This document shows positions 15,309 through 64,000 of a stretch of DNA of 64,000 bases, in pieces; positions within the stretch are counted from its first letter, which is position 1, and every line of letters starts with the position of its first letter. Below the pieces are notes generated by a model that ran no database searches, was not told the DNA's origin, and saw nothing but the letters and a program-made list of their open reading frames with translations. This stretch comes from Schmidtea polychroa (taxonomy: Eukaryota). The stretch covers positions 18,788,001-18,852,000 of the forward strand of contig CM097885.1 of assembly GCA_044892525.1 (NCBI GenBank), in the 5' to 3' direction. A program made the translations under genes and the position numbers.

Positions 15309-15486
15309 TCTTATACAATACGTCAGCTGAAGTTCTAGTGGCTAGTTAAGTCAATAATTGGGGTTAATGTAACTCACAATGTCTGTTGGTTCTCCTAATA
15401 ATTCATCGACCGTTAACCAGTGATACGATGTCAGACCTTCCAGCGGCAGTCAAGCACCCGTAAGAAACATTAAAGGGAGTATTGAT

Positions 15487-19254: not shown

Positions 19255-19467
19255 TTCCTTTAAAAATATTTTTCGATAAAAATATTTTTAAAATTTAAAA
19301 AAATTTCATATTAATACTTTTAGAATATTTCAGCTTCCTCACAGATATTGTAATGTGAAATTTACAACCTTTACTGGGGTTGTCATCGAATTCACCTCAC
19401 TTGTCATTTTATATAATAAATAACTTAATTAATAAAACAAAAACATTTTTTCTTCGTAAACATTTTC
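19047..19467. repeat. Inverted duplicate of 24847-25206 plus 24450-24501
   Basis: Near-identical reverse-complement match read directly. Confidence 0.85.
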
Positions 19468-20015
19468 AGTCAATGTTCTCAGGTACAATCCAACAAAGGA
19501 GACTGATGATGATATTATTATGAAACACCCACATTTGGATATAATACAAAGAACCAGAGTTACTAATACCACACATATCTATTTAATGTAATATCATTAT
19601 AATATCATTATGAATAATATCATTATACAGCTGTAGTAAGCATCAAAAATTAATGAATTGTCATCAAAATGAGAATGGTTATGTAAGAATCCAAAGTATA
19701 TTGTGGTGCGGGAGCTATTCGCACAGCAAGCTAATAATTGGGAAAATAAGTAAATTGTAAATCCAATATTGTTCTAAATTTTATTTTATCGTTATTTGAA
19801 ATTGTATTGACGTATTCGTTGGTATTCGGCTCGGCGTCGTGGATTGAATTGGTTTTTGGTAGTTGCAAGTGATTTTGTTTGTTGTTGCTAAATCGGAATA
19901 AGATGACATTTTGTTTGTTGCTGCTAGTCTGAGTAAAACAGACATGTTTTTTGTAATGTTTTAAAATCTTCATTATTTAAACAAATTACACTCGCACTCA
20001 GTTTAATATACTATT

Positions 20016-23000: not shown

Positions 23001-23184
23001 AAAATCATTCTTATAAATTCTGTTTTTTATATATATGTCAATCGAAAAAAATGAAATAAAGTAATAAATGGATTGTTTTTTGTTAAACTTTTTTATTTTA
23101 TCATAATTTTTGTACCTAATTTTTAAAATAGGGCGCTTTTTATAATTTTCGCCTGGGGCGTATAATTATCTCGAACCGGCGCTG
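20016..23184 (+). mobile_element. Full-length hAT (ZMYM1/TTF-finger type) with disrupted transposase
   Basis: 8-bp TSD ATACTATT (20008-20015, 23185-23192); imperfect TIR CAGGCCCGGCTC / CAGCGCCGGTTC. Transposase split into 20527-21867, 21936-22322 and 22363-23016 (FCFFC, LDCTPD, YDNGANM, TRWE, SGERSFSKL). Confidence 0.93.
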
Positions 23185-24510: not shown

Positions 24511-24846
24511 CTAGTTAATTGCAAGACGCCTAAGGCGCACGTTGACAAATCATAAAATAATTACGCTCGTAATAAATATTGTTGTAAATAATGCCTAAAA
24601 GTAAATTCAAGTTATTTTTGATTGCGTCGATTAATTTAATTTATATTTACATAGAAAAATCGAATTAAGTTTTATTTTGCAAAATAAACTTAGAAAGCGC
24701 TTTTTCAAAACTCGTTATTCGTGTAAAAATTCTATGATAGTATTAGTGAGAGAGAGAATTTTTTTATGATATTGTTAGGATCAACCAATCAGCGAGCGTT
24801 ATAGAATTAGTCAGTGAATCAGTGATGAGCGTAATTATATATTATA
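24511..24846 (-). mobile_element. Short non-autonomous Helitron-like insertion
   Basis: Interrupts one arm of the inverted duplication. Minus-strand 3' end CTAG (24511-24514) is preceded by a GCGCC-TTA-GGCGT hairpin; the other end is TA-rich. Confidence 0.55.
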
Positions 24847-24998
24847 TGACAAGTGAGGTGAATTCGATGACAACCCCAGTAAAGGTTGTAAATTTCACAT
24901 TATAATATCTATGAGGAAGCTGAAATATTCTAAAAGTATTAATATAAAATTTTTTTAAATTTTAAAAATATTTTTATCGAAAAATATTTTTAAAGGAA

Positions 24999-25405
24999 TG
25001 TTGAGGTTGTTAAAGTAAATTATTAAATTATGTCAAATTGAATAGTTCCGAATAAAAAGAAAACCGAAATTGAACGAAAAAGAATGACAGGGAAGCAGAG
25101 AAGTAATGGCAAAGAAAGATATGATAAAAACAGAACTATAAAAGGTACAATCAGACACGAAATGGAAAATTCGCAAATCTGAGGAAGCGGAATAAAGTGA
25201 AATGTTGCAATGGAGCAATGGTGTATTTGGATGACATTCTGATTTATTCGAACAGTAAAGAAAAACATTATACAATAATCAGTGATATATTAAAAGCGAT
25301 CGAGGAAGCCGGACTAAAAATTAACCAAGAAAAGTGTCAAATAATACAGAAAGAAATCAGATTCTTAGGATACATAATCAGCAAATAAGGAGTACAGACC
25401 GATCC
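24999..25405 (+). mobile_element. LTR start fused to a Gypsy reverse-transcriptase fragment (deleted element)
   Basis: TGTTGAGGTTG start at 24999. 25212-25405 reads GAMVYLDDILIYS...GLKINQEKC...FLGYIISK*GVQTDP. Confidence 0.75.
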
Positions 25406-27100: not shown

Positions 27101-28557
27101 GGCTGTAATGATAAAAGAGAGGTTAAAACGAATCCTCGTTCTCCCATTTACGTTCGGTTGCTCTAAGACGTTCAATGTACAATTACATTTAAGATCAACG
27201 CGACCCTCATCTCAACGATATCTTAGGTAGGGAAAATGGACCTAAAATGCTAATTAATTTCCCCTTTCGATTTCTTCTTTAATTTAATTTAAGTTGGCTG
27301 GAGACTTACGAAATCCAAGTTTATAAGTCTCGGTTACAGAATTGTAGTTCGTATGTTTAAAGTGGAAATCCATGAGCTTAGTTTTGATAAACTACTGGTT
27401 GATACAGTAGAAGTGAGCGTTTAAAATTTTATAAATTAAACTTTTAATAGTAGTTGTTTAAATCATGCAAAGATTTAATTTAACTATTTATACCACTCTA
27501 TATTAATTCAAATATTAAACTTTTAATAGTGGTTGTTTAAATCATTCAAAGATTTAATTTAACTATTTATTCAAATATTATTTTTCATTTTTTAGAATTC
27601 TCCATTGATAATTTTTTGGCAAAATTTATGCTACTAGGACCCACTATGGGAAGCGGATGTTGCAAATTGTATGAATTTGTATTCAACTCTTTGTGAATCC
27701 CTGACCATAGTGGTTGTAAGTGGCCCTTTCATCAGCTGGTGCTCGATAGTAAGTTAAAATTTTTATCTTTTGTAGTTGCATAATTTCAGGAATGGGTCTC
27801 TAATTCCTCGGTTTTTAGTATTTCAATCATTCACGGTATTGGAGTTATTACTGTTTAGTGGAATCCAAAGTATGGCTATACTCCCAATTCGTGGGCATTT
27901 AGGAGAAATTTCGGGGATTTATGGTGGTTTCAGGATTTTACTGATCTGTGCCACAGGAATTTAAAGTGAAAATTGGGACTCGAGTTTTTCTGAGTAGTCC
28001 CCTTCTAGAAATTCCTTAATATTACCGGTAAGATTCTTTTTGTGATTAGAATGGTTTCGTAAACAAAATTTTTGATTTTATTAAATACATTTTCGCTTTC
28101 GTTGATTCTTATTTAAGTAATTTTGTTTGACGTAAATTAATAATTATCGAATAATTTTGTTAACTCCTCATGAGAACCTATATAGTTAGTAATCACGACT
28201 TGTTATTACTCCTTACTTTTGGTCCTACTGGGTGGGTATTCCGATTCAGACCGTCACTTTCGGGGACTAGGTCCCGTGGCTTACATGCGATCTACTTCTG
28301 GGGTAACAAGGGTTAAATTCATATGGGTGAGATAGTTTTTATCGAAAGATTAGAGTTTCTACTGACATGGTCGATGGCGATTGGCTCGTGTAGGGGAGAG
28401 TATGTGCCACCTATTCGGTCAGTTAGGAGTAGTTCGTAGGGGGTAACCCTTGGTTTGCAGGGTTGTTACTAATAATAGAAGCGGTATTATTGGTCTAACT
28501 TTGCTATGAGGGAAAGAAAAAATCGATACTGTCGGTTTTGAACTTTCCTATTAATAG

Positions 28558-29452
28558 TGTTGGGGTTCAACAAGAGAGGCACAAAAATGAGGTGAAAATT
28601 GACAAAAACACCAAATTCAGAATAAAAATTTAAAGTACAAAATATTAATTAAAAATCAAAAATTTTAAAAAAATGAATATTTTCTGGGGGAAACTGGTAT
28701 GGGCGGATGCTAAATAATGAGACGAGTTCAGCTATAATAAAATAAAATCAATGGGGGTCCCTAAAAGGAATAAATTACAAAAAACAAAAATTAATTAAAA
28801 ATTAATTAACTAATGGAAAACCCGAGCTAATGGGAAACCCGAGCTATTGGAGAACCCGAGCTAATGGGAAACCCGATACAATGGAAAACCCGAGCGAATT
28901 GAGAAATCCAATTTCGGGAAGGCAATTAATTTAGCCGGAGAAATCTAATTTTGGGAAGGCAATTAATTTAGCCGGATAAAAAGTAAAAAGCGCCGTCAAA
29001 CAAATTCCATTCAATTAAATTAGATCTCCAAGAGGAAGCCCGGGGGGAAATAGGACCAAAGATAATTGGCAAAAATAAAGTCAATTATTAAACGAGTATA
29101 AAAGCAACTGGCAAGAAAACAAAATGCCAGTTGGTCGAAGAAAAGAAAATAGAAGTTTGAAGAGAGCGAAAAGGGAAATATTAAAGTTAGTAGAAATTAA
29201 ACCATTTAAAAATCGAACGTACCAGAAAGGGACATCTCCCGTTGGAAGATCTACCCCTGCGTGAGATTTGTTAATAAATTGAAAAGTGCAGACAAAACCT
29301 GATTGTATCAAGTGTGAGTAAACTAATACAAGTGTAAAAGTGTAACTGCATCAGTGTCAATAAAGATTTTGTGTTGGGTTATTTATTTATTTATTTGCAA
29401 AAGAACACAAAGGAGTCAGACCGTAGTACCGACTTACATTAAAAACCCAACA
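28558..29452 (+). repeat. 5' LTR (895 bp)
   Basis: TGTTGGGG...CCCAACA; five 17-bp repeats (28811-28895); TATAAAA at 29097; AATAAA at 29359. Confidence 0.97.
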
Positions 29453-29456
29453 TATT

Positions 29457-29474
29457 TGGTGAGCCCGACGTGAT
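29457..29474 (+). promoter_or_regulatory. Primer binding site, tRNA-Trp
   Basis: TGGTGAGCCCGACGTGAT is complementary at 17/18 positions to the animal tRNA-Trp 3' end as recalled (ATCACGTCGGGGTCACCA). Confidence 0.85.
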
Positions 29475-29843
29475 CAAAAGTCGGTGAAAATTTGTTGAAA
29501 TTGTGATAATATTTGAGTGATACCGAAGATTAAAAAGATCGGTGAAAATTTGTTGAGATTAGTAAAGTATCGGAAAAATTTGGAAAAAGATAATAATTAA
29601 ATAAATAAATATTGAAGTGAAACGTTTATTTGAAAGTGGTGAACATTTATTTGAGAATTATTAAAGTGGTGATTTTATAATTGAAGCAAAGTGGAAAAAT
29701 TTGTAACGATTGATTGTTGAAAAGTCAAAATTAAAACGAAAGGAAAATTTTGTAATTGTAACACTTTGAATTTTAGACGAGTAAAGCCTGTGTTGACACG
29801 ATCATTTTATAAATTGAGAAGCCAAACACTAATAGAGAATTTA

Positions 29844-32800
29844 ATGAGTACCCAAAGACTAACCAATAATACAAATAACAACGACGAAACACCTGTGTCC
29901 ACGGTGGGCAACGGCAAGGAAGGCAATGATTATGCGAGTTGTCAAAAACTACCTGTGGATCAGTACGGTGGAGATCCGCTGGAATTTGTCGATTTTATGG
30001 CAGATTACTATATGTATGCGACGGCCTATGGATGGAGCCAATCGATAATGGTGCAAAGATTACCGCTATACCTAAAAGGAGCAGCCAGAGAAGCGTGGCA
30101 ACAAATTGATAAAAGAATAGTAGCAAATGACTGGACCAAGTTGAAAGACGCGTTAGCCACGAAATTAATCGGAGTGGATATCAAACGGATAATGCGACAG
30201 AAATTCTATAACCGCGTACAAAAGCCAGAGGAATCGGTAAGTGAGTTTGCTTATCATTTATCAACTCTTGCAGAGAAAGCGTTCGAAGTGAAACCAGAAC
30301 AGGCCGAGATGGCAAAGCAGGTAAAAGAATTATTGCAGGATCAATTCTTGTCAGGAGTAAAGAAAGAAATTAAAAAGGCTCTATGCTATGTTGATTTTAA
30401 TGACTTTGATGAATTGATCAAAAAGGCAATGAAAATTGAGCTAAATTTAAAAAGCACACAGTCAAAATCAGAGTCGTTTGCAGTCATCTCAGGCGCAAGC
30501 GAAAGATCAGTAACCCCAATTAGAAACAATCGTTTTCAACAAACAAGTAGTCCATCACCAAAATTTAGATCCAAATTTGAGTCGAACAAGTCAACAGATA
30601 TTCAAATAGATGGAAAGGAAGGTCCCATCCAATGTAGTCATTGCCAAAGGATTGGACACCATGTTAACCAATGCTGGTTTAAAAATAGAGTACAGAGAAG
30701 CCCAATTCCGATTCAGTGTGATAATTGCCAAAGAATGGGACATGACAGCAATCAATGCTGGTTCAAAAATAATGTACAACGGAGTCCAAGGCAAATGTGG
30801 TCTGATTGGTTAAAAGGAAATGGTGCGAAAAGTTTCACTAAAGCGAACATTAATGAGCCGAGAACTAATGATAACTTACAATGCTTTAATTGCGGAAGAA
30901 AAGGGCATGTGTCACGAAATTGTTTTCCAAGGTCAAGATCAACATCAACATCACCATCACCGCAGAGAGATAAAGTAAATCTACAAGGACAAATTCAATG
31001 TCATTCATGCAGAAGTTATGGACACATGGCTAGATCATGTCCAAGAAATATGGATAAATTCCAAAGACCCATATTAAAGAAATCGATTAGGTTTCAGAGT
31101 GACAAACCGCAGATGGATAATGTAGCTTTTATTCAGCCAGATAATTTTAATGAAAGAATTGAAAACGAAGTGAGAGAAATGGGTCGACGTTTGGATCGAT
31201 TGATGTCAAAGTTTGAATCAGAAGAGGACTACAATAATCACATGATGTATGAGTCGCAAGAGGAATTGAATGAAAAAGAGTCGAAAAGGAGAGTTATAAA
31301 AGATGATTTAGAAAGTGAAAAAGCAACAATGATAATGACCAGAATCGAAAAACTAATTGGAAATAATGAAATAGAGTCGGCTAAAGTGATCAAATCGTTG
31401 AGAGAATTAAGTCAAATATCTTTGAGTATGAGAAAGATAAAAAGTGTAATTAGCTTGTGCGTTAACTACTATAATATGAATCCAAAGTATAAAGAAGAAA
31501 TTAAAGAATTAATGAAAATATTTGGAAAAGCTTTGAGAGAGAAAACAGGGTTAGATTCCATCTTGGTGGAAGTAGTAAACGAGATTGATAAAAGTGTATT
31601 ATGTTGTCGTTGTGAGGCAAATGATTGTGTAAATGATTTAAAGAATAAATTAAAAGAAAAAAAGGAAGGATGCATGATAGAGTTGAGATTTAATGAGAGA
31701 TTGTTAGAAAATGACGAATTTTTAGTAGATTGTGGATTTATACCAGGGAATACAAATGAATTAAAAATGGAAAATGTAATTACTAGTGATGAAATAATGA
31801 GTAGTAAAATAATAGACAAAAGGAATTCAAGGGAGATATTAGAGGAATTAAATGATGCGTTATATATTGGAGATGAAGATGAAATCGATGAGAAGTTACA
31901 GATTATTGAGAAATTAGAAATGGAGGACAACGATAAACTAAAAATAGTGAATATAATACGACCATATTTACATGTGAAAACCAGATATGCCAAGTTATTA
32001 AGAAGTTTATTGCAAAGATTGGGCAAGGAGCTCAGAAAGGCAAGAGTAGAGTTAAAGCCATTTTTGATAGCATTAGATTATGAGGGATATGGCAAAACGG
32101 AATATGTAGACGAGCATTGGTGTGCAAAGGTCCGAAAATTGCGGAAGAGAGCGGCTGAAACGCTGGGAAAAGATGGAATTATTATAGTAATGTACAAAGG
32201 TGAAGAACTTGACGATGATGAATACCTATATGATTGTGGGTGTGTACCACAAGAGCTGGATGAAAACGGATATTTGATCCGAGATGGACGAGTGGGATAT
32301 TTAGTGAACCATATAGTCGTAGTAAAAGGAGTGAGTTTAGAAGTAAATATTGAGTCTAACAAGCCTGACACAGAGGAACAAGATGAAAAAGTTAAGGGAA
32401 ATAAAGAAATTGATGAAATCGTTAGTGATAATGAGCAAAAAGATCCTGATAACAAAGATCAGTCCACAGAACCAGACGTACAAGGAGAGCCACTTGTACC
32501 TGAAGGCGAAATAAATGGTGAAATCAAAAATAAGAAAGTTAGAACTTTATATGAAATAAAGAAATATTTAGTGAGGCTAGAACAGGACGTCGACGAAACT
32601 AAGAAAATGTTGAAACATCTCGTTAAAGCAGTATATCCAATGTTCGACATAGAAGTAGAGGTAGATGATGAACTGAAAGAAATAGTTAAAGAGATGAAGA
32701 ATAGGCTTCCTGAAGTGATGCAGAAATTTGGCGAAGAGAATACATTTTGCGAGAGATCAGTAATCGAAAATTTGGCAAAAAATGAAATTAATAAGGAGGT

Positions 32801-34022
32801 TATAATAATAGCTTTAACTTATGTTGTTTTAGAAATTGGAACGCATACGTTCGCAAGGTCAGACAAGTTAGAAAATTTGATAGACATCGCTGCCCGGCTA
32901 GTAAACGAATATTTAATGAGCTGGGTAAACGAAAAAGGTGGTTGGAAAACACTGTGTTCATCTCTAACAGAAAAGAAAAATGAGAAGCAAGAAATGAGTC
33001 CACCCCAAAGACGAGTAAATGAAAGAGTTAAGCCAGAACTAAGAAAAACTATGATATTTCCATGGGCGATGTTTATGGTGATTACGTTTTGTGCAATAAT
33101 TACACAGACATCATCTTTAGTTGCGTACGATTGTTCCCAAACTGAAATGGGAAAAGTTTATTCGGTAGTAGATATGTCGGAATGCCCAGGTGCGTATCCG
33201 AGCAGTTTAAAAATAGAAAATGACGTAAAATATTATGTGTATCAAGAGTCTGATCTGCGAAGAACTCAAGTGAGAGAGTGTATTGTCAAACATACAACAT
33301 TTGTATTCTATTGTGGTAAATGGAGCCATACGTCACTCATAAAAATGCATGCGATACCTAGGCCAGTCGAGGTGCTTCCAGAAAACTGTCTAGCAGCATT
33401 TCAAACAGGAGAATTAAAAATAAGTCCAGAAATTCGTTTAAAGGCAAAATTGAACCATAGAATACGAGAAACAATAATTGTAAAGGGAGTTATGAAAGCA
33501 AATGGCGACTGTGAAGGTGAACCATATAAAATGAACGGTAAAATTATTCAGCAAACAGTGGTGCTAGAAGAATATCTCACGGAGTTGAGAGAGTTCGAAG
33601 GAGCTTTCGATGATGATACGGGAAAATTACAAACTCATCCATTCTGTAATATGAAACAAACACATTGTCAAACAGGGGAATCGATTCTTGTTTATAATGT
33701 AGAAACAAATAAGTGTAATTTAGCGCACTTAAAAACTATGAACTTTAAAGAGCTAGTAGGAGAACAGTTTAGAGATAAACCAGATAATTTCAATATGAAT
33801 TATAGACCAAATAATACCATTAAATCAACCCCAGTATGGACAAAGCAAATGGGAACAGTTTTAATGTCTACGTTACCAAGCATGTGCAGGTTTAATTGGA
33901 ATTTACGTTATTATGATAACGGCAAAGGTGGTAGTGTCGCAAATGTTGTCAGTACATCGAATATACGTAATATCGGGATGGTCATGGAAATTAGTTATTG
34001 GTTGTATTCCATTGTTGGCTAG
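29844..34022 (+). CDS. gag: ORF1 polyprotein: Gag (capsid, 4 CCHC knuckles) - 2x(helical + ubiquitin-like) - Bcl-2-like - signal/TM - N-terminal half of a chuvirus-type glycoprotein
   Basis: First ATG at 29844. LKGAAREAW and QKPEESVSEF capsid motifs; CX2CX4HX4C at 30633, ~30717, 30882 and 30999; WVNEKGGW at 32922; AYDC at 33123; YCGKWSH. Confidence 0.9.
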   Translation: MSTQRLTNNTNNNDETPVSTVGNGKEGNDYASCQKLPVDQYGGDPLEFVDFMADYYMYATAYGWSQSIMVQRLPLYLKGAAREAWQQIDKRIVANDWTKLKDALATKLIGVDIKRIMRQKFYNRVQKPEESVSEFAYHLSTLAEKAFEVKPEQAEMAKQVKELLQDQFLSGVKKEIKKALCYVDFNDFDELIKKAMKIELNLKSTQSKSESFAVISGASERSVTPIRNNRFQQTSSPSPKFRSKFESNKSTDIQIDGKEGPIQCSHCQRIGHHVNQCWFKNRVQRSPIPIQCDNCQRMGHDSNQCWFKNNVQRSPRQMWSDWLKGNGAKSFTKANINEPRTNDNLQCFNCGRKGHVSRNCFPRSRSTSTSPSPQRDKVNLQGQIQCHSCRSYGHMARSCPRNMDKFQRPILKKSIRFQSDKPQMDNVAFIQPDNFNERIENEVREMGRRLDRLMSKFESEEDYNNHMMYESQEELNEKESKRRVIKDDLESEKATMIMTRIEKLIGNNEIESAKVIKSLRELSQISLSMRKIKSVISLCVNYYNMNPKYKEEIKELMKIFGKALREKTGLDSILVEVVNEIDKSVLCCRCEANDCVNDLKNKLKEKKEGCMIELRFNERLLENDEFLVDCGFIPGNTNELKMENVITSDEIMSSKIIDKRNSREILEELNDALYIGDEDEIDEKLQIIEKLEMEDNDKLKIVNIIRPYLHVKTRYAKLLRSLLQRLGKELRKARVELKPFLIALDYEGYGKTEYVDEHWCAKVRKLRKRAAETLGKDGIIIVMYKGEELDDDEYLYDCGCVPQELDENGYLIRDGRVGYLVNHIVVVKGVSLEVNIESNKPDTEEQDEKVKGNKEIDEIVSDNEQKDPDNKDQSTEPDVQGEPLVPEGEINGEIKNKKVRTLYEIKKYLVRLEQDVDETKKMLKHLVKAVYPMFDIEVEVDDELKEIVKEMKNRLPEVMQKFGEENTFCERSVIENLAKNEINKEVIIIALTYVVLEIGTHTFARSDKLENLIDIAARLVNEYLMSWVNEKGGWKTLCSSLTEKKNEKQEMSPPQRRVNERVKPELRKTMIFPWAMFMVITFCAIITQTSSLVAYDCSQTEMGKVYSVVDMSECPGAYPSSLKIENDVKYYVYQESDLRRTQVRECIVKHTTFVFYCGKWSHTSLIKMHAIPRPVEVLPENCLAAFQTGELKISPEIRLKAKLNHRIRETIIVKGVMKANGDCEGEPYKMNGKIIQQTVVLEEYLTELREFEGAFDDDTGKLQTHPFCNMKQTHCQTGESILVYNVETNKCNLAHLKTMNFKELVGEQFRDKPDNFNMNYRPNNTIKSTPVWTKQMGTVLMSTLPSMCRFNWNLRYYDNGKGGSVANVVSTSNIRNIGMVMEISYWLYSIVG

Positions 34023-37000
34023 ATTCTTTATTACAGATCATCAATTTAAAGAAATGGCAAGAGTAAGGGCACAATTAAGAAATGGCCGGAAAAGTGAGGA
34101 ATCGACGTGTCAGTCGGAAGATAAAAACGACAATCATAATGATGATAACAACAACGGGGAATCGGAGCATAAATGCTTTCGAAAAAGTGCAATAAAGAGT
34201 AAAGTAGAGCCAGAGTCCAGGTTCTTGCTTGAACCAATGCCAAAATTAAGCGGGATTGATACTCTTAGTAGATGGTATACCCCGACATTTAGACCAACAG
34301 CACCAGTATATCCAAGTGAAAAACTAAAAGAGATGAAATCGGTCGATAATATCACAATAGAATTAGAGAAGATTGAACCAACGAGTGCTGAAATTGAAAG
34401 AAAGAATATGCTTGGTCTACCATGCAGCTATGCACTAATGACAACAGTAGTAGGAGGAAAACAACCTCGAATAAACATACAGTTTAACAAGAGAAAAGTG
34501 GAAGCTTTATTAGACTCAGGCTCAAGTCATACTATAGTAGCGGAAAGTTTCTTGACGTATCAGGAGAAAGCCAAAATAAAACCAACGAATCACATTATTA
34601 AATCAATGTCACATAATGCACTAAATATTGTTGGAAAATTAGAAGTTAAACTTATAATTGGAGATCAAGAAATAATTCATTGGGTATCAGTGATGAGAAA
34701 AAGTCCTGTAAAATGTCTTATTGGCATGGATGTCATGGAGCAACTACGTGGAATCTCTCTTGATCTGAGAACTGGAAAACTAATAAAAGGACAAATGGGT
34801 GAAGTAGTGCCTGAAGTAGGAGAGGTATTTCTAAACCAAACATTGGAAGTACCACCAAAAAGCGAAGTAATATACTATGCAGATGTTATGAGGGTCTCAG
34901 ATGAGGAGTACATATTTGAGCCAAATCAAAAGCTGGTTGAAAAATACGATGTGCCTATGTGTGATGAAGTAGTGAAAGTTCAAAACAAGTCAGTACCAGT
35001 TAGAATAGCGAATTATAGTGCAAGATCCGTTGAAATAAAGCCCAAAACCAAATTGGGAAAATTAACAAAAATCAAATCAGAGGAAGCTCAGAAGTTACCG
35101 AGGAATATAAAAATTTATAAAGAACCTCAGATCACAAGCAAAGATTTGACGGATTTGCAAAAACAAGAATTCAGTGCATTATTAAAGAAATATAGAAATG
35201 TATTTGCAAAACATGAGTATGATCTGGGACTCACTCAGGTGATTGAGCATGAAATACCATTACTCAACGAAACCCCAATAAAATTACGGCCGTACAGAAT
35301 ACCATACATACATCAGGAAGAAAGTGATCGGCAAATCAAAGCAATGAAAGAATTCAATATAATAAGAGATAGTTCCTCACCATTCTCATCATCAATAGTA
35401 GTAGTTAAAAAGAAGGACGGTGATTTAAGATTTTGTGTTGACTATCGAAAACTGAACCAAGTAACGAGAAAAGATACATATCCTATTCCTGTTCCACAGG
35501 AAATGTTCGATCAGATGGGGGAGGTGCAATATTTTACGGTAATAGATCTTAATAAAGGATACAATCAATTTAAAGTCAAAGAGGAAGATAGAAGGAAAAC
35601 TGCATTTTCAGATGGGAAGGGTCTATATGAGTTTAACGTGTTACCATTCGGATTAACAGGAGCACCTGCTACATTTCAGAGAGGTATGAATTTTGTTTTG
35701 CGCGATATACCACATGCATTAGTGTATATTGACGATATAATAATATTTTCGAATAGTTTTCAGGAACATTTGCAGGATGTGGAAACAGTATTCAAGCGAT
35801 TGTTAGAAGCAAACTTAAAAATAAAACCCTCCAAATGTGAATGGAGAAAATCTGAAGTAGTTTATGTGGGTCATATCATTTCGCGTCGAGGTTTGCAACC
35901 AAATCCAGAAAATGTAGAGAAAATTAAGGAATATCCTATTCCCAAGGATGTAGATCAGGTTCGACAATTTCTGGGATTAGCTAGTTATTACAGAAAGTTT
36001 ATTAAAAGTTTCTCACATGTCGCACAACCTTTGAACATGTTATTGAAAAAGCAAGCAAAATTTAAATGGACAAAAGCTCAGCAAGAAGCGTTTGATAAAC
36101 TCAAAGAAAGCTTAATAAAACAGCCGATATTAAGATGTCCGAACTTTAAAAAACCGTTTATATTAATGACAGATGCCAGTAATTTCGCATTAGGCGCGGT
36201 ATTAGGACAGCAAGTAGAATGGGAAAAAGATCATGTAATTGCTTATGCCAGCAGATCATTGAAACCTCATGAGAAAAATTATTCGACAATCGAAAAAGAA
36301 ACGTTAGCATTGGTATATGGGATAACCACTTTTCGACAATACCTAGTGGGCAGAAAATTTGTTGTCTTTACGGATCACAATCCGTTACAATGGCTAATGA
36401 AGCACAGAGATTCGGCCAGTAAATTAATTAGGTGGTCAATCGCGTTACAAGAATATGATTTCGAGATAAAGTATCGTACAGGGAAGTCAAATGCAAATGC
36501 GGATGCTATGTCAAGAATACCAGTGGAAAATAATGTTGATCAGGATGAGAAAAATTGCGAAAATACAATATTTATGGCAATAAAAACCGCAAATAATATA
36601 GAAAAATTACAAGATGATCAAGAAAATGACGAGGAATTAAATCAGTTACGCCAACATGCTGTCACAATCAAAAAGGAGAGTGACTGGAAACATATTGCCG
36701 AAGAGAACCATAAATACATTATTCATGATGGTTTGTTAAAATGTGTACAAAATGAAAATTTGTTAATTATTGTTCCGACAAAACATCGAAAATCATTACT
36801 GTTGTTGTATCACGATGGAGCATTAGGAGGGCATTTATCAGCGCGAAAAACATTATCAAGATTGAAACAGAAATATTATTGGAAAACGATGGAACAAGAT
36901 GTCAGACAATGGTGTCATACGTGTGAGATATGCCTAACAAGACGAAATACGGGACGGAAAATAAAAGTTCCGCTTAAGCCTATGCCAGTGCCCAAGGCGC

Positions 37001-39153
37001 CAATGGAAATGACAGCAATGGACATCGTTGGTCCATTGCCGGAAACAACAAATGGCAAAAAATACATTATCGTTTTTTGCGATTATCTTACTAAATGGCC
37101 AGAAGCTTATGCAATGCCAAATCAGAAAGCAGAAACAGTTGCGAAAATATTTGTGGAGAATATTATTTTTCGATACGGAGCACCAAAGAAATTACTTACA
37201 GATCAAGGAACAAATTTTCAGAGTGAATTATTTAAATCAATCACAGATTTATTTGGTATATTGAAACTTAGTACCTCACCATATCATCCACAGACAGATG
37301 GTCTAGTTGAAAGATTTAATGGGACACTAATTAATATGATATCATCCTATGTAAATAGGAAACAAAAGGATTGGGATTTATTCATTAAACCATGCTTATT
37401 TGCATACCGGAATGCAGTAAATGAAAGCACTGGAGAAACACCCTTTTATCTCATGTATCTACGACGAAACAATATGCCAGTCGATCTAGAATTTCAGTCG
37501 CCTATTTCCCAATATATGGATGTGTCAGATTATAAAATAGCTATGCATGAAAGACTACAGTTAGTATGGATCCAAGCTGGACTTAACATAAGGCATCATC
37601 AAGAAGCGTATAAAGAATGCTATGATAAACGCGCACGGGCGCATGACATTAAAATTGGAGATCTCGTGTATATAAACAAACCAGAACCAACAAAAGGCTT
37701 GTCAACGAAATTGCAACGACCGTTTAAAGGACCATATCTAGTGTGTGATACGACAGAGACTAACTTAAAATTGCGTCCACAAAACAATAAAAAGGCTGGG
37801 ACAATCATCGTTCATGTAAATAGATGCAAAAAGATAATAGAAGATGAATCACGTTATCCATTGAGATCAAAGCCAAATAAAGATGCAGGGAACCCAGTAA
37901 TTAAACAAAAGTTTACAAAAAACCCTGCTCCATTGAGTTACATCAATAAAGTTTTATTGATTACAACAGTAATGATTATCAATATAATGTCAGTAAATGC
38001 AGTGAGAGTATTCCCGTTATATGCAACTAATACAGTTGTATTATTAGACAAAGTTCATATTTATTCAACATGTACTCAAATAGTTTGGGTTTATTATGCT
38101 GGAGGAGCAGAAGAAATAGAGATAAATAATCTAATAAACTATTTTGAACCCCCAATAAAATTGAACAGCACCAAAAATATTTATGTGGCTAGACAATTAA
38201 CAATGAATTATGAATACCCTTGGTTAATTACGCAATTGGATTCGAAAAGTAATAATACAAAAATACAAAATCTTATACGCATTAATATTTGGACAAAGAG
38301 ATTACATAATCGAGTATCAATTGAACCACTGGTAAATGGAATTGACATATATTGGGAACCCCAGGAATCCCAACAAGTAAAAGCAGTTTTTCAAAATTAT
38401 GCGATAGATACATTGAATAGCAGAAAACCCTTTATAAAGTATGCAAATTTAAAATTACATCATAACTATAATATTCTGATTCACTATTATGAAAAATCTT
38501 TATACGAAAACGGAACTGAAATTGATAGTCAATGGATCAGAATACACTCTAGTCAACATATGATACGATTAGTTAATGAAACAAATCGGGTTACTTTTCA
38601 TATTTTCAATCAATTAGTGAATGTTACCCGACAAGCGGAGCCCAATCAAAAAGCTATTTTATATTATTATGGAAAAATTCAATCGATATTAAATGAAAAA
38701 AATAAATCTCAAATATTAACTTTTCGTCAACGTTCACCAATATCGACGTCAAAATTTGTGTTCATTAAAATAAAATACTATAGACGTTCTCTATTTTCAA
38801 ATCTATGGCAATTAACTTTAGTGGAAAATAAAATTGTGCAAATTCCATCTATTAACTCGCAGTATGGAAATCGAAACAAATCAAATCAGTCCAACCAAAC
38901 CCCTAGCTCTGCCAACGTAATCATCTTTTCTAGCATCAATGAGTCAATGACTAATAACGAAACCATATCGTCATTAAAAACTGACAGTGAAATTGTGTGT
39001 GTAACATTATTAATAACTACTCTCATTATAACAATCTCTCTCATTATTCTCATTATCATTGTGCTAATTGAATTTCGAACAATACCCAAACCTTCTACGA
39101 ATCGATCCGAGATTGCGAGACCTTGGATCGTTTATGAAGAAACATTTGTGTAG
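33865..39153 (+). CDS. pol: ORF2 polyprotein: glycoprotein C-terminal TM and tail - protease - RT - RNase H - integrase - FN3-like type I membrane protein
   Basis: Frame open from 33865 (track ATG at 33913). LLDSGS (D at 34513), YIDD (35725), TDAS, HHCC, D-D-E and GPY motifs; second signal peptide at 37951-38001; TM at 38992-39069. Confidence 0.95.
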   Translation, partial: CLRYQACAGLIGIYVIMITAKVVVSQMLSVHRIYVISGWSWKLVIGCIPLLARFFITDHQFKEMARVRAQLRNGRKSEESTCQSEDKNDNHNDDNNNGESEHKCFRKSAIKSKVEPESRFLLEPMPKLSGIDTLSRWYTPTFRPTAPVYPSEKLKEMKSVDNITIELEKIEPTSAEIERKNMLGLPCSYALMTTVVGGKQPRINIQFNKRKVEALLDSGSSHTIVAESFLTYQEKAKIKPTNHIIKSMSHNALNIVGKLEVKLIIGDQEIIHWVSVMRKSPVKCLIGMDVMEQLRGISLDLRTGKLIKGQMGEVVPEVGEVFLNQTLEVPPKSEVIYYADVMRVSDEEYIFEPNQKLVEKYDVPMCDEVVKVQNKSVPVRIANYSARSVEIKPKTKLGKLTKIKSEEAQKLPRNIKIYKEPQITSKDLTDLQKQEFSALLKKYRNVFAKHEYDLGLTQVIEHEIPLLNETPIKLRPYRIPYIHQEESDRQIKAMKEFNIIRDSSSPFSSSIVVVKKKDGDLRFCVDYRKLNQVTRKDTYPIPVPQEMFDQMGEVQYFTVIDLNKGYNQFKVKEEDRRKTAFSDGKGLYEFNVLPFGLTGAPATFQRGMNFVLRDIPHALVYIDDIIIFSNSFQEHLQDVETVFKRLLEANLKIKPSKCEWRKSEVVYVGHIISRRGLQPNPENVEKIKEYPIPKDVDQVRQFLGLASYYRKFIKSFSHVAQPLNMLLKKQAKFKWTKAQQEAFDKLKESLIKQPILRCPNFKKPFILMTDASNFALGAVLGQQVEWEKDHVIAYASRSLKPHEKNYSTIEKETLALVYGITTFRQYLVGRKFVVFTDHNPLQWLMKHRDSASKLIRWSIALQEYDFEIKYRTGKSNANADAMSRIPVENNVDQDEKNCENTIFMAIKTANNIEKLQDDQENDEELNQLRQHAVTIKKESDWKHIAEENHKYIIHDGLLKCVQNENLLIIVPTKHRKSLLLLYHDGALGGHLSARKTLSRLKQKYYWKTMEQDVRQWCHTCEICLTRRNTGRKIKVPLKPMPVPKAPMEMTAMDIVGPLPETTNGKKYIIVFCDYLTKWPEAYAMPNQKAETVAKIFVENIIFRYGAPKKLLTDQGTNFQSELFKSITDLFGILKLSTSPYHPQTDGLVERFNGTLINMISSYVNRKQKDWDLFIKPCLFAYRNAVNESTGETPFYLMYLRRNNMPVDLEFQSPISQYMDVSDYKIAMHERLQLVWIQAGLNIRHHQEAYKECYDKRARAHDIKIGDLVYINKPEPTKGLSTKLQRPFKGPYLVCDTTETNLKLRPQNNKKAGTIIVHVNRCKKIIEDESRYPLRSKPNKDAGNPVIKQKFTKNPAPLSYINKVLLITTVMIINIMSVNAVRVFPLYATNTVVLLDKVHIYSTCTQIVWVYYAGGAEEIEINNLINYFEPPIKLNSTKNIYVARQLTMNYEYPWLITQLDSKSNNTKIQNLIRINIWTKRLHNRVSIEPLVNGIDIYWEPQESQQVKAVFQNYAIDTLNSRKPFIKYANLKLHHNYNILIHYYEKSLYENGTEIDSQWIRIHSSQHMIRLVNETNRVTFHIFNQLVNVTRQAEPNQKAILYYYGKIQSILNEKNKSQILTFRQRSPISTSKFVFIKIKYYRRSLFSNLWQLTLVENKIVQIPSINSQYGNRNKSNQSNQTPSSANVIIFSSINESMTNNETISSLKTDSEIVCVTLLITTLIITISLIILIIIVLIEFRTIPKPSTNRSEIARPWIVYEETFV

Positions 39154-39585
39154 TAAGACATAAATACTTTGCATGCAAAAATTGATAAAGTAGTAGTAGT
39201 AATATAGTATAAATATTTTATGGATATTATTAATATTTTTTTTCTTTATGGATATGATCAATATTTCATTTTATTTTACTTGTGAATCTGCACTTTTCAA
39301 TGTCAACGGAAAGAATCAATTTGATTGGTTAGCGCTGTGTTAAGGGGGAGAAAAAAACGGGGTTAAGGGAATTTTCATAAGGGTATTAAAAGAGGGTAAA
39401 ATCCATTAAACTCCATTAATTTTCAAAAAAATATATATATCAACAATTAACTAAACGGTAATTATTATTATTATTATTATTTATACAGCTAGTAGCTGGG
39501 ACAGTATCCTTCGGATACTTCATCTCAGCCCTAGTTTTAAAAGTAAAGTAAATTCAAACGTTAAATTATAACTATTTTAGCAAAA

Positions 39586-41046
39586 ATGGAACAAGTACAA
39601 TGGACAAGATCCACCTACGACAGTTACTTCAAGATGCAGAAAAATCATGCCAGCCAACAATTATACGAAATCAATGAAAATTTACAAATTCCAAATTATT
39701 TGAGGATAGATGACAGAAGAATGAAGATACGAATGTTTACAATAAGGAGAAATTCAGAATTGAAATTGACAGATGAAATTGAGTTGTCTCGGAAGGAAGA
39801 ATATCACATACACGTGATCAGAGGTACAGTGGAAGTGCTGAAGAACGATAATACAATATGGTGGCAACTTCGAAAATTCACATCGTGGAAGCTGCAGAAG
39901 GACTCCATGTGGAGAACACTACGAGCAGCGAATGAGGAGACAACGTTGGTGGTGGAAATCAGAACTGAGAATGAAGCGGATGAGGTACCACAGATGCATC
40001 TAATTGAAGGAGAAGACCCAATGTTATTGAAAATTTCAAAGGAAATGTTGAAAAAGAAAATGTCGTTTCTCAGAAAAGAAATGGATCTAGAAGAAATCCG
40101 CAGTAGAATATTATTCATTGATGCTGAATATGGCACATCAGAGCAAGGGAAAATGGTCCCTTTAGCAATAGCAATTATGAATTATTATGGGAAAGTAGTA
40201 AAAGATGTATACCTCACTCCAAGAGGAAAAATCCGACATTTTAATTCAAGGATCCATGGAATTACAGAAGTGGCCAGCAGGAACCAATGTGATCAATATG
40301 TGGCAATGAAAGAGATACAACGCTTGACAGTAGGCAAAATATTGATCGGCCATGATTTGCATGCAGAATTACAATACTTGGGGATATGGATTGAACAATT
40401 GTACGGCATTCGAGATCTAGCAGCAGCACCAATACTTCAGAACATGGGAGTAACCATAAGGGGAGAATGGTTCAAACTACAAACAGTGGTGAAAGAAATA
40501 TGTGGAGAACAGACTCAGATGAGTATTCATTCGGCTCTCGAGGACGTGAAAAGTATACGCAAGGTATACCAGAAAGTGGAAAGTCAATGGATTGATGACA
40601 TACCGATGCCCAAAAATCAACCGTCAAAGCGATATTCGTGGGATGAATATAAGAAGCTTCGGGAAATTGAATCAACATCAACTGCAATACCAGAAAAACT
40701 AACGCAAATTCCAATTGAAGATGTAATGGAATCTGAAGAAATTGATTTAACATTCGAGGAGAATGTGACGATGGATAGTGAAAATCCATTGATTCAACTG
40801 AAGTGGGCCAATGAATCATTCTTAGAAATTGCGGAAGGTGTCGCATTAATGGTAAGCATACCGATGATAAGGATACATCCAACACTTGAATATGGTCCAA
40901 TGCCAGAATGTAGAAAATCCAAAAAGAGAAAAACAACTTCGAACATTGATGTCGGAGACACTGTCAATGGTGTAGTATATGAACGCGAAGAAACAATAAT
41001 ACGATATCGGCATGAAACGAAACGATTAGAAATAAAGATGGATTAA
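39586..41046 (+). CDS. ORF3: cupin-like N-terminus + DEDDh 3'-5' exonuclease (REX4/ISG20-like)
   Basis: ExoI FIDAEY (40120), HGIT, ExoII-like LIGHDLHAEL, ExoIII HSALED; intact 486 aa. Confidence 0.85.
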   Translation: MEQVQWTRSTYDSYFKMQKNHASQQLYEINENLQIPNYLRIDDRRMKIRMFTIRRNSELKLTDEIELSRKEEYHIHVIRGTVEVLKNDNTIWWQLRKFTSWKLQKDSMWRTLRAANEETTLVVEIRTENEADEVPQMHLIEGEDPMLLKISKEMLKKKMSFLRKEMDLEEIRSRILFIDAEYGTSEQGKMVPLAIAIMNYYGKVVKDVYLTPRGKIRHFNSRIHGITEVASRNQCDQYVAMKEIQRLTVGKILIGHDLHAELQYLGIWIEQLYGIRDLAAAPILQNMGVTIRGEWFKLQTVVKEICGEQTQMSIHSALEDVKSIRKVYQKVESQWIDDIPMPKNQPSKRYSWDEYKKLREIESTSTAIPEKLTQIPIEDVMESEEIDLTFEENVTMDSENPLIQLKWANESFLEIAEGVALMVSIPMIRIHPTLEYGPMPECRKSKKRKTTSNIDVGDTVNGVVYEREETIIRYRHETKRLEIKMD

Positions 41047-41659
41047 TTTTTATATATTGTATTTATAAAATAAATAATTGTGAACTCGATTTTGTCTCAT
41101 GTATTTATTGGCAGCGCATCAGTTAGACCCCAAAATAAGAATAAATAAGTAAATAATTGAGAGTAAATAAATAATCAAATAAATAAATAAAACTATTATT
41201 GTGTATAACAACAAACACATTTCCAATTGTCGGGGTTTGGCTACCCTGGACAACAATTGGAAATGAGTGGTTGTAAAGAGCCACATAAACAGGTTGCGAC
41301 AAATCATAACAATTTATAATTTATTAGACAAAAAGGAATTGATAAATATTTTCAAATCATAATAGAAATTTTCGATATTTATAATTCATTTAAACAAATT
41401 TAAAATATTAATTCATAAAAATAATATATATATATTGCCAAAGAAAATATTGAATTCACTGACTCAGCCACTTGTAGGCGAAAAGATAACAAACATTTTT
41501 ACCAAAAAAAAATTATAACATAATAACAGTAAGAGACCTTGAACAAATACTTGGAAATGTTGTTTGAAAGCAAGTGATAAAATAAATTTATTCAATATAA
41601 AATCACACTTTCCATTTCATTTTATTTAAATTGTTATAGATAATTATGGAATATCTTAC

Positions 41660-42033
41660 CTGAAATATCACATAAAACATTAAGATCGCGCAGCCTGAAT
41701 TAACTCGATATTTACAAATAATTAATGCACTTCCCATTAATTGACAAATAATATTTATTAGTAGAAAAAATTCAATAATCAAAGAATTCATTTTCCCATA
41801 AACTGGAAATAAAATCTATTTGTTCACTCCACGGGGTAATTAATTGATATCCATCTTCAATAAAGGTCGACACTAAACAAACTCGAGCAATATGAGGTAA
41901 GAATCGACGTGTCTTTCTAATTACCTAGCATACAACTGAAAATTGAAAAGAAAATATACAAATTTACTATATCAGCATAATTCTCTAAATTTGTCAAACA
42001 ATCCTTTTTATTATTTCGAATAGAATCAACCAT
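41660..42033 (-). CDS. SURF4: SURF4/Erv29-like gene (N-terminal part), antisense inside the LTR element; exons 42033-41968 and 41924-41660; one +1 frameshift near 41795
   Basis: Spliced read MVDSIRNNKKDCLTNLENYADI|VIRKTRRFLPHIARVCLVSTFIEDGYQLITPWSEQIDFISSLW-MNSLIIEFFLLINIICQLMGSALII, versus SURF4 as recalled ([45 protein letters not shown]). 43-nt GT-AG intron. Confidence 0.85.
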
Positions 42034-43584
42034 TAAGAAATTTACAACGTAGTAATTTAAAATTAAAATTAGTCTAATTATTCAAGTTTATAAACTCGAT
42101 AAGTGATTGTATTTTCTTTTCTGTAAAAATATAATTTTCTGTTATTACATTTTAATAAAAAAATAAAATAAATGGCATACCGATTTCTTTACACTTTGTT
42201 CATTTTCCAAGAACTCTCAGAAAATAGTTTGGCATTTTATCTGCAACAATATCAAAGCTCATTATATAGTTTTATAACGAGCCTAAGTGAGCAAGCGAAC
42301 GGTTCGTGGTCTTATCTGTTGGCGATATGTGTCGAGTCCAGTGTCTTTCTAAACTGAAATTAGCCGTCTCTAAAATCGCTTGAAGTTCTGCAATAAAAGT
42401 CAATGACTAGTTCCAATTTGATGGCTGTCGTGTTAAAATGAAATGACTTAATCGCCTATCACACACATACACGAGAGAAGAGGGAAAGTGACACACCTCC
42501 TAGTATGAAAGAAGTCAAAACAACAAAACAAATTAAATTACCCTTGAATTAGTCCAAATTGTAGATGTGTAACAAATTCAATCGGATGATTGGTGGATTT
42601 AATTATCATTTTCCTTTTGGAATTTTCCTATCTCCCGTCAAAAGTGCAAACCAATTTCTTAAATAATTTCGGTTTTAGATCTGAAATTGAAAAACAAATT
42701 GAATTACCCTCAACTGCAATTGAATTAGTTGATTGGATCAAAAAGAGAAAAACCGCAACTACAATTGAATTAGTTAAATAAATTTTTTTCAACAAATTCC
42801 AAAAACGTGATATATTTTGTTTTAATGGCATGCTAATATTTCATGAAGGAGGCAGTGAATAACAAAACAAAAATGTCAAATTATAATTCAGAATGATTTT
42901 CTTAGAGATTATTGGAAAATATAAAATAATAAAATATTGTTTTGGTTGACATTTAAGAAACAGAATTGTCAAAAGCAGCTGAATAAATATGAAAAATAAA
43001 TTTTTTTCAACAAATTCCACCATGTTCAACTAAGTTGAATAACAAAATAATTTTTTTTAAATTATTATTAATATTATTATTATATCAAACTGATTTTCTC
43101 ATTAATTTCTTTTGTTTCTCTTTTGGAAAAAAATTCTGTGAAATAATAGTTTAAAATAAATAGCTAAGCAACTATCTGTGATGAACCCAACTTGATATCA
43201 TATTGTATACACTGCACAGTGCATTTCATCATGTACAAACAAATATTATGATGCCCGATACACAACTGTCACCAATATTACAATTATTATCATCATCATT
43301 ATTAATTATTATTAGTATTGTTATCGGTAGTATTATTATCGTCATTATTATTGTTATTAGTATTAACATTATTATTTATATTAAGTAGTGTGAGGATGAT
43401 GGGGGGGGGGGGGGGAGTCGAATAAGGAAATTTCAAAATAAAATATCTCAGATTTAAAATCATTGGCAAAGGCAATAGCTAAAATAGGTAGATAGCAATC
43501 CATTTTTATTATTATTATTATTATTGTTATTACTGTATGGTAAATTTGACTTATTATATGCAGATTCGAGGTCGAATCTAAATT

Positions 43585-43595
43585 AAAGGGGGAGA
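43585..43595 (+). promoter_or_regulatory. Polypurine tract
   Basis: AAAGGGGGAGA, 2 nt upstream of the 3' LTR. Confidence 0.9.
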
Positions 43596-43597
43596 TA

Positions 43598-44459
43598 TGT
43601 TGGGGTTCAACAAGAGAGGCACAAAAATGAGGTGAAAATTGACAAAAACACCAAATTCAGAATAAAAATTTAAAGTACAAAATATTAATTAAAAATCAAA
43701 AATTTTAAAAAAATGAATATTTTCTGGGGGAAACTGGTATGGGCGGATGCTAAATAATGAGACGAGTTCAGCTATAATAAAATAAAATCAATGGGGGGTC
43801 CCTAAAAGGAATAAATTACAAAAAACAAAAATTAATTAAAAATTAATTAACTAATGGAAAACCCGAGCTAATGGGAAACCCGATACAATGGAAAACCCGA
43901 GCGAATTGAGAAATCCAATTTCGGGAAGGCAATTAATTTAGCCGGAGAAATCTAATTTTGGGAAGGCAATTAATTTAGCCGGATAAAAAGTAAAAAGCGC
44001 CGTCAAACAAATTCCATTCAATTAAATTAGATCTCCAAGAGGAAGCCCGGGGGGAAATAGGACCAAAGATAATTGGCAAAAATAAAGTCAATTATTAAAC
44101 GAGTATAAAAGCAACTGGCAAGAAAACAAAATGCCAGTTGGTCGAAGAAAAGAAAATAGAAGTTTGAAGAGAGCGAAAAGGGAAATATTAAAGTTAGTAG
44201 AAATTAAACCATTTAAAAATCGAACGTACCAGAAAGGGACATCTCCCGTTGGAAGATCTACCCCTGCGTGAGATTTGTTAATAAATTGAAAAGTGCAGAC
44301 AAAACCTGATTGTATCAAGTGTGAGTAAACTAATACAAGTGTAAAAGTGTAACTGCATCAGTGTCAATAAAGATTTTGTGTTGGGTTATTTATTTATTTA
44401 TTTGCAAAAGAACACAAAGGAGTCAGACCGTAGTACCGACTTACATTGAAAACCCAACA
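43598..44459 (+). repeat. 3' LTR (862 bp)
   Basis: Matches the 5' LTR apart from two fewer 17-bp repeats, one extra G and one A/G substitution that I could see. Confidence 0.97.
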
Positions 44460-44487
44460 ATAGTAACGTTTTATTGATAATCATGTT

Positions 44488-63127: not shown

Positions 63128-63895
63128 TTATCTGCTAGTAGACCGTCTTCCACTTGTTGATCGTCTAGTGTAAGAAGTTTTCGAATATCGGGAACTTTTA
63201 TATGTCATCCTAGGAGATCTACTAGTAGATCTTCGATAAGATCTACTTGTTGATCTTCTTTTCATTGTTCTTCTTCGTGATCGACTACGCGATCTACTGG
63301 TTGAACGCCTGGGGCCCCTTCTTTGTGCCTTGAAAGGTGAACGCCGTCCATCATGGCTTCTAGATCTTCTATGGTAATCTCTACCATTTCGTCTATTCGA
63401 TACTTTACCCATGTAGTAACCAGGTGTTGGAGTATGAGCTTTTTTAGTTATACTGTAATCAACGCGAATAACTTTTCCATCGAGATTCATTCCACTAGCC
63501 TCTTTCACCGCTCTTGTAGCAGATCCCAAGTCTTCATAATTAATAAAACCGTATCCCATGGACTCGTGATGATATTTATCCATAATCAATTTAACCGATG
63601 CAATGCGACCGAATTTCTCAAATGTTTCCCATAAAGTTTGCTCTTCCGTTCTTTTGTTCAAACCAAAAACGCCAATGCATGTACAAGGTTCAGGTCGTTC
63701 ATTCATACGGTTTCTACGATTATTTCGAGATGGAGATCTTGAATAAGATCTAGAATAATTTCTATCGTTTGACGTTGTTCTGCGACGAGTAATTCTATCA
63801 TTTGAAATACTTCTGGATCGAGACTTCGAAGACCTTTCACTGGAACGACTATCTCTTTCACTATAATCCGAACTATATTTACCACTTTTAGTCAT
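63128..63895 (-). CDS. TRA2: Transformer-2-like SR splicing factor (RS-RRM-RS), single-exon CDS
   Basis: CIGVFGL and GYGFINY RNP motifs, plus the TRA2 signature IRVDYSITKKAHTPTPGYYMG. Confidence 0.9.
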   Translation of the reverse strand: MTKSGKYSSDYSERDSRSSERSSKSRSRSISNDRITRRRTTSNDRNYSRSYSRSPSRNNRRNRMNERPEPCTCIGVFGLNKRTEEQTLWETFEKFGRIASVKLIMDKYHHESMGYGFINYEDLGSATRAVKEASGMNLDGKVIRVDYSITKKAHTPTPGYYMGKVSNRRNGRDYHRRSRSHDGRRSPFKAQRRGPRRSTSRSRSRSRRRTMKRRSTSRSYRRSTSRSPRMTYKSSRYSKTSYTRRSTSGRRSTSR

Positions 63896-64000
63896 AATAA
63901 ATTATAACTCAATTAAATATGATTGTCAAAAATGACAAATATATTTAAACAAACTTTTATTTTATGTAATTCAAATGTAAATAAAATTTATTATAAATAT

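Follow-up and report, generated by a model that had tools for sequence, protein, structure and literature searches.

The SURF4 sequence found in the window (the whole stretch of 64,000 nucleotides of Schmidtea polychroa DNA that was analysed) is a genuine but broken fragment of a host gene, located between the ORF3 stop (41046) and the 3′ LTR (43598) of a young Burro-like Ty3/gypsy retrotransposon. Taking all the evidence into account, it is probably a passenger in a Pack-like and mostly neutral cargo slot, filled by patching with host DNA. SURF4/Erv29 is an ER cargo receptor, and the first-pass annotation of this region had proposed that the fragment serves the element as a helper or acts as a dominant-negative; what that annotation observed in the sequence was confirmed, while the function it proposed was not.

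The Carrier Element

The host genome has 781 Mb, with four large contigs. The element has LTRs with TG..CA ends, a target duplication, a polypurine tract, and the protease, RT, RNase H, and integrase order, which are features of a Ty3/gypsy LTR element (Table 1). Between the two LTRs a single substitution and two indels, of 1 and 34 nt, were counted, and a duplication of 4 bp flanks the element (28554-28557 and 44460-44463); near-identical LTRs together with this duplication indicate a young insertion. In ORF1 the fusion-glycoprotein domain (PF24664, E 4.9e-25) was matched over its first third only, positions 5-213 of 653, and a Bcl-2-like stretch gave a weak match with PF00452 (E 0.006, below the cut-off). 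It was also possible to see that ORF1 stops where the fusion-glycoprotein match ends and that it overlaps ORF2 by 158 bp, which may be either a lesion of this copy or an arrangement common to the family. The Pfam search gave no family for ORF3. The search with ORF3 yielded 88 scored copies with 97-100% identity, many of them without SURF4.

By architecture and domain matches, the element resembles the planarian gypsy-like element Burro/GYPSM1 (PMC6431247), which likewise has a gag with zinc knuckles and an accessory ORF. Burro also has a BCL2-like motif and a fusion-type env before pol, to which the weak Bcl-2-like match and the strong partial fusion-glycoprotein match here may correspond. According to the same source, Burro exceeds 30 kb, in contrast to 15.9 kb with 0.9-kb LTRs here, and its ORF1 of about 4,900 aa contains BIR, MATH, and ankyrin domains, none of which was found in the 1433 aa of ORF1 here. 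The ISG20-like ORF3 is a further difference, and the cargo of Burro consists of coding domains within the polyprotein, whereas here it consists of noncoding fragments in the 3′ UTR. A DEDD exonuclease is also the third ORF of the bdelloid elements Juno and Vesta (PMC5408684), where it is of the DEDDy type and not DEDDh/ISG20-like as here.

Table 1: Features of the element and of its cargo, in positions of the window.
Feature	Position	Strand	Remarks
LTR element, whole	28558-44459	+	15.9 kb, Ty3/gypsy type
5′ LTR, TG..CA, 895 bp	28558-29452	+	compared with 3′ LTR
ORF1 (1433 aa)	29721-34022	+	gag PF03732, zinc knuckles PF00098
ORF2	33865-39153	+	protease, RT, RNase H, and integrase, arranged as in Ty3/gypsy elements
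ORF3, 486 aa, ISG20-like DEDDh exonuclease domain	39586-41046 (stop 41046)	+	ISG20L2 7yw5 match, E 2.8e-11
3′ UTR cargo slot	41047-43597	+	hypervariable; length 1349-3216 bp across 88 copies
AATAAA (41592-41587) with a putative antisense poly(A) site (41575)	41575-41592	-	one contig, run X2; weak
Captured SURF4 piece, 554 bp remaining of a 742-bp capture	41626-42179	-	alignment with host donor
SURF4 exon 2 copy	41660-41924	-	then donor GT at 41659
SURF4 intron 1 copy, 43 nt, GT..AG	41925-41967	-	same 43 nt as host intron 1
SURF4 exon 1 copy, 22 codons, ATG at 42033	41968-42033	-	host alignment
Second window piece	42202-42460	.	96% to G000:C1:175.157 Mb; no element anchors within 3 kb there
22-nt direct repeat flanking third piece	42780-42801, 42998-43019	.	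single in empty sisters
Third window piece	42801-42997	.	98% to single-copy locus G000:C4:88.692 Mb
Polypurine tract	43585-43597	+	visible in the sequence itself
3′ LTR, 862 bp	43598-44459	+	compared with 5′ LTR

The SURF4 Fragment and Its Donor

The donor is a four-exon host SURF4 gene at G000:C1:93.618-93.623 Mb. The window and the donor share 96% identity over 442 aligned bases, intron 1 and the noncoding 5′ flank included, so the resemblance to SURF4 is not due to chance. The host has two complete four-exon SURF4 paralogues, on C1 and C3, and the one on C3 is far more distant from the piece. Taking into account this alignment, the N-terminal SURF4 part with an intron, read in the first-pass annotation as antisense inside a retrotransposon, is indeed present, its 43-nt GT-AG intron (41967-41925) is host intron 1, and the second donor that had been placed after exon 2 at 41660 begins with the GT at 41659. 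The two halves of exon 2 match Pfam SURF4 (PF02077) in different frames (E 3.1e-13 and E 4.6e-6), the frame being lost, as had also been noticed, in the C run around 41795; the first stop follows at 41774-41772, and the piece, if spliced, would give a product of 72 residues.

In the longest copies (L020 and L043, 742 bp), about 300 bp from upstream of the ATG come before exons 1 and 2, which have intron 1 between them, and the first 69 bp of intron 2 follow. The C-terminal half, whose lack had been remarked upon, is missing since even these copies stop at that point of host intron 2; exons 3-4 were absent from every copy searched (52 Pfam matches and 51 aligned copies), and 157 of the 267 positions of the SURF4 profile lie outside the capture. 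Retention of intron 1 and of the flank supports the earlier suggestion of a capture from DNA or unspliced RNA, and the retained intron excludes a processed retrocopy. An element lying beside a true SURF4 gene was discarded, the piece being internal and the complete paralogues being on C1 and C3. A sequencing error as the cause of the frameshift was likewise discarded, considering that the break is common to 47 of 51 copies.

Fate of the SURF4 Reading Frame

The piece was found in at least 51 copies of the element, and the 110-codon frame was unbroken in none of the 51. Where the break at 41795 was lacking (four copies), the frame had lesions of its own or was truncated. Most copies keep the ATG, the donor and acceptor of intron 1, and the 5′ flank intact. 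A stop-free stretch of 92 codons was present in 7 copies, all of which are missing 64 nt of exon 2 together with the intron 1 acceptor. The calculation of dN/dS was made with 50 copies, leaving out the truncated L066. Among these 50, the distinct nonsynonymous changes numbered 46, including 4 stops, and the synonymous ones 18. The values obtained, 0.66, 0.81, and 0.97 at transition biases of 1, 2, and 4 (p 0.16-0.89 against neutrality), come from a test of low power, are compatible with a weak constraint (about 0.6), and may include some differences that fall on the host branch. For codons 1-64 alone, before the break, dN/dS was 0.73-1.06 with 3 distinct stops. Purifying selection on the SURF4 codons was thus not detected at this low power of the test.

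ORF3 of the same copies is under purifying selection. Its dN/dS was 0.22-0.30 on changes seen in at least 2 copies (80 to 92, p<1e-13), 0.34-0.48 on all changes, and 0.16-0.22 when the calculation was restricted to the final 250 codons; in five copies, parts of ORF3 are recombinant and divergent. The copies of the SURF4 piece do not maintain its coding frame.

RNA was looked up in the assembled contigs of four runs, which we presume to be RNA. The 43-nt intron is absent from one X2 contig; at each of the six sites where this contig departs from the window it has the host allele, and these alleles are also present in six element copies outside the window lineage. In an X7 contig the 41660 donor is joined to host exon 3, and this splice identifies it as host mRNA. 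An X2 contig that covers 41575-41697 joins the SURF4 piece to the adjoining stretch; the 13 bases at its end have no match and look like a minus-strand poly(A) tail, 11 bases past the AATAAA. None of the 45 copies read (45/45) has a genomic A run at 41575. This contig, one in one run, hints weakly that element copies may give rise to a polyadenylated antisense RNA.

A spliced antisense transcript could in principle give an N-terminal SURF4 peptide aiding the export of the element's glycoprotein or blocking host SURF4. The preserved ATG, splice sites, and 5′ flank, the 92-codon stretches, the possible poly(A) site at 41575, and the part of a fusion-glycoprotein domain that the element encodes are in line with it. 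Against it stand the 0 of 51 intact frames, the dN/dS and stops of codons 1-64, the defective splicing and exon 2 of the seven stop-free copies, the 157 profile positions never captured, and the host alleles of the spliced contig; moreover, sister copies without SURF4 are equally young and have a near-identical ORF3, and most of them carry other cargo. We regard this explanation as very improbable and largely refuted, and we saw no sign that the piece yields a useful protein. The first-pass annotation had itself named neutral decay in all copies as what would speak against its proposal, and this is largely what the 51 broken frames and the p values describe.

The exon-intron core was better retained than the rest of the piece: across the SURF4 copies exon 1 was retained at 100%, intron 1 at 85%, exon 2 at 93%, the 5′ flank at 53%, and intron 2 at 67%. 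This better-kept exon-intron core weighs against a purely neutral reading. The 5′ flank is richer in AT and short repeats than the core, and its poor retention may be attributed to this composition; intron 2 is not repeat-rich and its loss is not so explained. A 92-nt exon deletion was counted in 11 SURF4 copies (deletion counts leave out L066 and L056).

Contents of the 3′ UTR

The 3′ UTRs of 51 further ORF3-matched copies were found to have their initial 230-290 bp and their end in common and to differ in the middle. At least one of 15 traced host pieces was present in 76 of 88 distinct complete UTRs, a non-random sample chosen by similarity, in which each UTR was counted once and 8 loci without an anchor were excluded; six pieces in a row were seen in 7 UTRs. 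All 15 donor loci lack ORF3 anchors, and one of them (L157) may be an element remnant. Outside this count are L149, L155, L156, and L160 (one 135-nt piece), L158 (52 nt), and L159 (no match), as well as L148, L152, and L154, which are element copies and not donors. Donor L142 is a DnaJ gene, although an LTR-like stub of 84 nt lies 2.3 kb from it. For the window stretches 41340-41626, 42460-42800, and 43000-43270 there was no donor among the 40 best matches, all of which were element copies.

The commonest cargo other than SURF4 is an antisense, intron-containing piece of a Kelch-like BTB-BACK gene, presumably KLHL20, present in 40 of 49 complete UTRs of copies picked by ORF3 match. It measures 1,265 bp and runs from 6 bp before the ATG through three exons, with most of exon 3 deleted in sub-lineages. 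In one UTR type six pieces, each of 95-406 bp, follow one another; they derive from three chromosomes, and the end of a DnaJ exon and an exon of PDS5 are among them. Further cargo comes from a bZIP gene, from introns of an ankyrin gene and of a ubiquitin E1 (E1_UFD) gene, and from a part of an FAD-oxidoreductase gene, presumably SQOR, that includes both exon and intron sequence; Pfam gave no family for the ankyrin exon or for the oxidoreductase exons.

Some minor features of these UTRs were also noted. Of the loci of the 135-nt piece (L149, L155, L156, and L160), three lie near short LTR-like stubs, and L149 also has a RING-finger ORF; they possibly belong to a related element family with common cargo. 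A motif at window 42310-42340 and around 1330-1410 of the L077 UTR recurs with 76-88% identity amid unrelated cargo and may be an old scaffold or a regulatory site. In the UTRs of individual copies (L054, L075, L053, and L072) the slot contains secondary insertions of other transposons. Donors L042 and L202 (G000:C1:93.59-93.62 Mb) are 25 kb apart and have the same orientation to the element, a closeness explained either by chance or by one long source molecule.

Origin of the Pieces

The strand was placed for nine of the pieces, 6 antisense and 3 sense, a difference that is not significant, whereas six others could not be assigned. The antisense ones are SURF4, Kelch-like BTB-BACK, DnaJ, and PDS5, by library matches, bZIP by a weaker match, and L153 by eye; the sense ones are the E1_UFD-gene intron, the ankyrin-gene intron, and the FAD-oxidoreductase piece, and these three exclude a strict antisense-only rule. 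Every gene-placed piece contains intron sequence and none is spliced. The sense pieces have no complete intron, the ankyrin one ending a few bases before the acceptor and the E1 one beginning past the donor, which would fit a filter acting on the genomic RNA and not a one-strand mechanism.

Adjacent pieces join with 0-5 shared bases or with 5-9 filler bases (raw counts). Against an empty sister, the 341-nt bZIP piece is a pure addition, with neither loss nor duplication, and the 196-nt third piece of the window shows a 22-nt duplication of the recipient that is absent from the donor. These are the clean junctions, 2 of 5 filled/empty comparisons (a poor DnaJ pair apart); the other three were eroded. 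In an ORF3 tree of 58 copies, from which four short rows were dropped and in which 9 of 51 branches are starred and the bootstrap had not settled, the SURF4 label changes 8 times, at least 4 of them forced by starred (well-supported) branches. Weakly resolved as this tree is, such changes suggest that cassettes move between lineages.

Considering that the pieces are never spliced, occur in both orientations, and include pure additions, we favour the patching of the slot with host DNA. Stretches of 0.1-1.3 kb of host genic DNA would be copied by repair synthesis into breaks of the element, in either orientation and with their introns. To judge from their distribution, such pieces would be tolerated only in the noncoding region between ORF3 and the polypurine tract. 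Antisense pieces could keep whole introns, whose splice sites would not be read in the genomic RNA, and sense pieces would persist if they lack a complete intron. The copy bearing a piece then multiplies through retrotransposition, as the at least 51 SURF4 copies attest, and the pattern among copies is one of recombination between sister genomes that swaps and stacks pieces and of deletions that erode them. What weighs against patching with DNA is that only two filled/empty pairs have clean junctions. At least 9 of the 15 donors overlap or adjoin exons, so an RNA template may have been used.

An entry by jumping of the reverse transcriptase onto co-packaged unspliced nuclear RNA, with the same slot and the same neutral fate, seems rather unlikely to us. 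Sense pieces would be acquired in minus-strand synthesis; antisense ones would arise in plus-strand synthesis or come from RNA that is itself antisense or the product of read-through. The richness of the donors in exons of ordinary genes agrees with it, and the 22-nt duplication fits an exit from one RNA copy and a re-entry on the second; the SURF4 and E1_UFD donors, 25 kb apart on C1 and in the same orientation, are placed as if taken from one read-through RNA. No spliced piece was found, however, and spliced mRNA is the usual and abundant template. Antisense pieces also outnumber sense ones, 6:3, although not significantly. Multi-gene chimeras through template switching are reported in PMC5131818, yet the LTR retrocopies described there replace element sequence with a median microsimilarity of 6 bp, and one of the insertions here is blunt and without loss.

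The cargo could instead be kept for a role at the RNA level, with anti-element piRNAs also striking SURF4, the Kelch-like gene, and others, so that silencing of the element becomes costly. The two commonest cargos, SURF4 (51 copies) and Kelch-like (40/49), are long antisense exon blocks with 96-98% identity to their donors, and the exon core of SURF4 is kept better than its flanks. The donors are nevertheless assorted housekeeping genes, and among those that could be placed we take none to belong to a silencing pathway. Intronic or sense pieces are numerous, one cargo freely gives way to another, and some sub-lineages have lost exon sequence (92 nt in SURF4, most of exon 3 in Kelch). There are precedents in TART-nxf2 (PMC7785250), in captures of aub and piwi (PMC13534243), and in the cross-talk of maize (10.1101/777037); in a planarian study (PMC8532177), genic piRNAs are reported to be mostly sense and depleted from SMEDWI-2. 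We hold this role to be improbable. The same low estimate applies to a dedicated, fast-renewed capture cassette which would benefit the element by turning the piRNA response on host mRNAs and whose contents would be exchanged as older ones diverge.

Comparison with Other Capture Systems

Host fragments from multiple loci lie inside the element and have moved with it, as in Pack-type systems; the carrier is an LTR element and not a DNA transposon with TIRs or Helitron ends. The element behaves like a Pack element but is not one. Pack-MULEs, Helitrons, maize Sireviruses (10.1101/777037), and animal Pack-TIRs (PMC8277862) likewise contain short host fragments, several per element, in both orientations and with short or no microhomology. 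Unlike those systems, the carrier here is an animal Ty3/gypsy element with a full pol and a single slot, and captures are present in 76 of 88 copies of a non-random sample, compared with 3% of Sireviruses (10.1101/777037).

Metazoan LTR-mediated retroposition (PMC5131818) and maize Bs1 (PMC13317346) also have host sequence within LTRs, multi-gene chimeras, and amplification. Those cases are described as spliced mRNA copies which replace element ORFs with about 6 bp of microsimilarity, whereas here the pieces are unspliced and often antisense and no coding gene was lost. Intron-less inserts derived from mRNA were not what we found, since SURF4 and Kelch-like keep introns and the others are intronic or exon-intron pieces. 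The insertions are nearer to the gap-filled Pack-TIRs (PMC8277862) than to the retrocopies of PMC5131818. The nxf2 capture of TART-A and the captures of aub and piwi in telomeric elements (PMC7785250, PMC13534243) are likewise host fragments in a retroelement, and antisense piRNAs are possible in principle in both cases; those captures concern non-LTR elements that repeatedly captured genes of the piRNA pathway, with piRNA evidence, while here the donors are assorted. Long conserved antisense ORFs known at the same position of elements have no host donors, whereas the SURF4 piece is broken and has a donor 96% identical.

In the literature searched, which did not extend to the original Burro paper or to supplements, we found no account of such a slot in planarian elements nor of SURF4 in a retrotransposon, and the parts of PMC11410931 and PMC8532177 that were available do not mention the slot.

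These results remove a tempting false lead, that of a cargo receptor borne by a retrotransposon, and they offer a tractable system, that is, a young animal LTR family with serial, traceable, unspliced pieces and with filled and empty sisters in one genome. Two questions become testable in it, DNA repair against jumps of the reverse transcriptase and piRNA cross-talk in an animal with somatic PIWI. If the cargo did turn the silencing response on host genes, it would constitute a general-purpose hostage system, beyond silencing genes, with each cassette variant as a natural experiment in one genome. In practice, dozens of SURF4 and Kelch-like exon copies with 96-98% identity can be a source of error in this genome when reads are mapped, genes annotated, or RNAi designed.

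Other Features of the Window

Several fragments of hAT-type transposases (DUF659, DUF4371, and Dimer_Tnp_hAT) were seen at 8904-23016, and one element is bounded by inverted arms of 369 nt (19047-19415 and 24838-25206). An inverted match of 90 nt at 18849-18940 (minus strand), with 79-80% identity to a tandem motif inside the LTR, is probably a related solo LTR fragment. At 63128-63901 (minus strand) there is an ORF with an RRM domain, which is probably a host exon.
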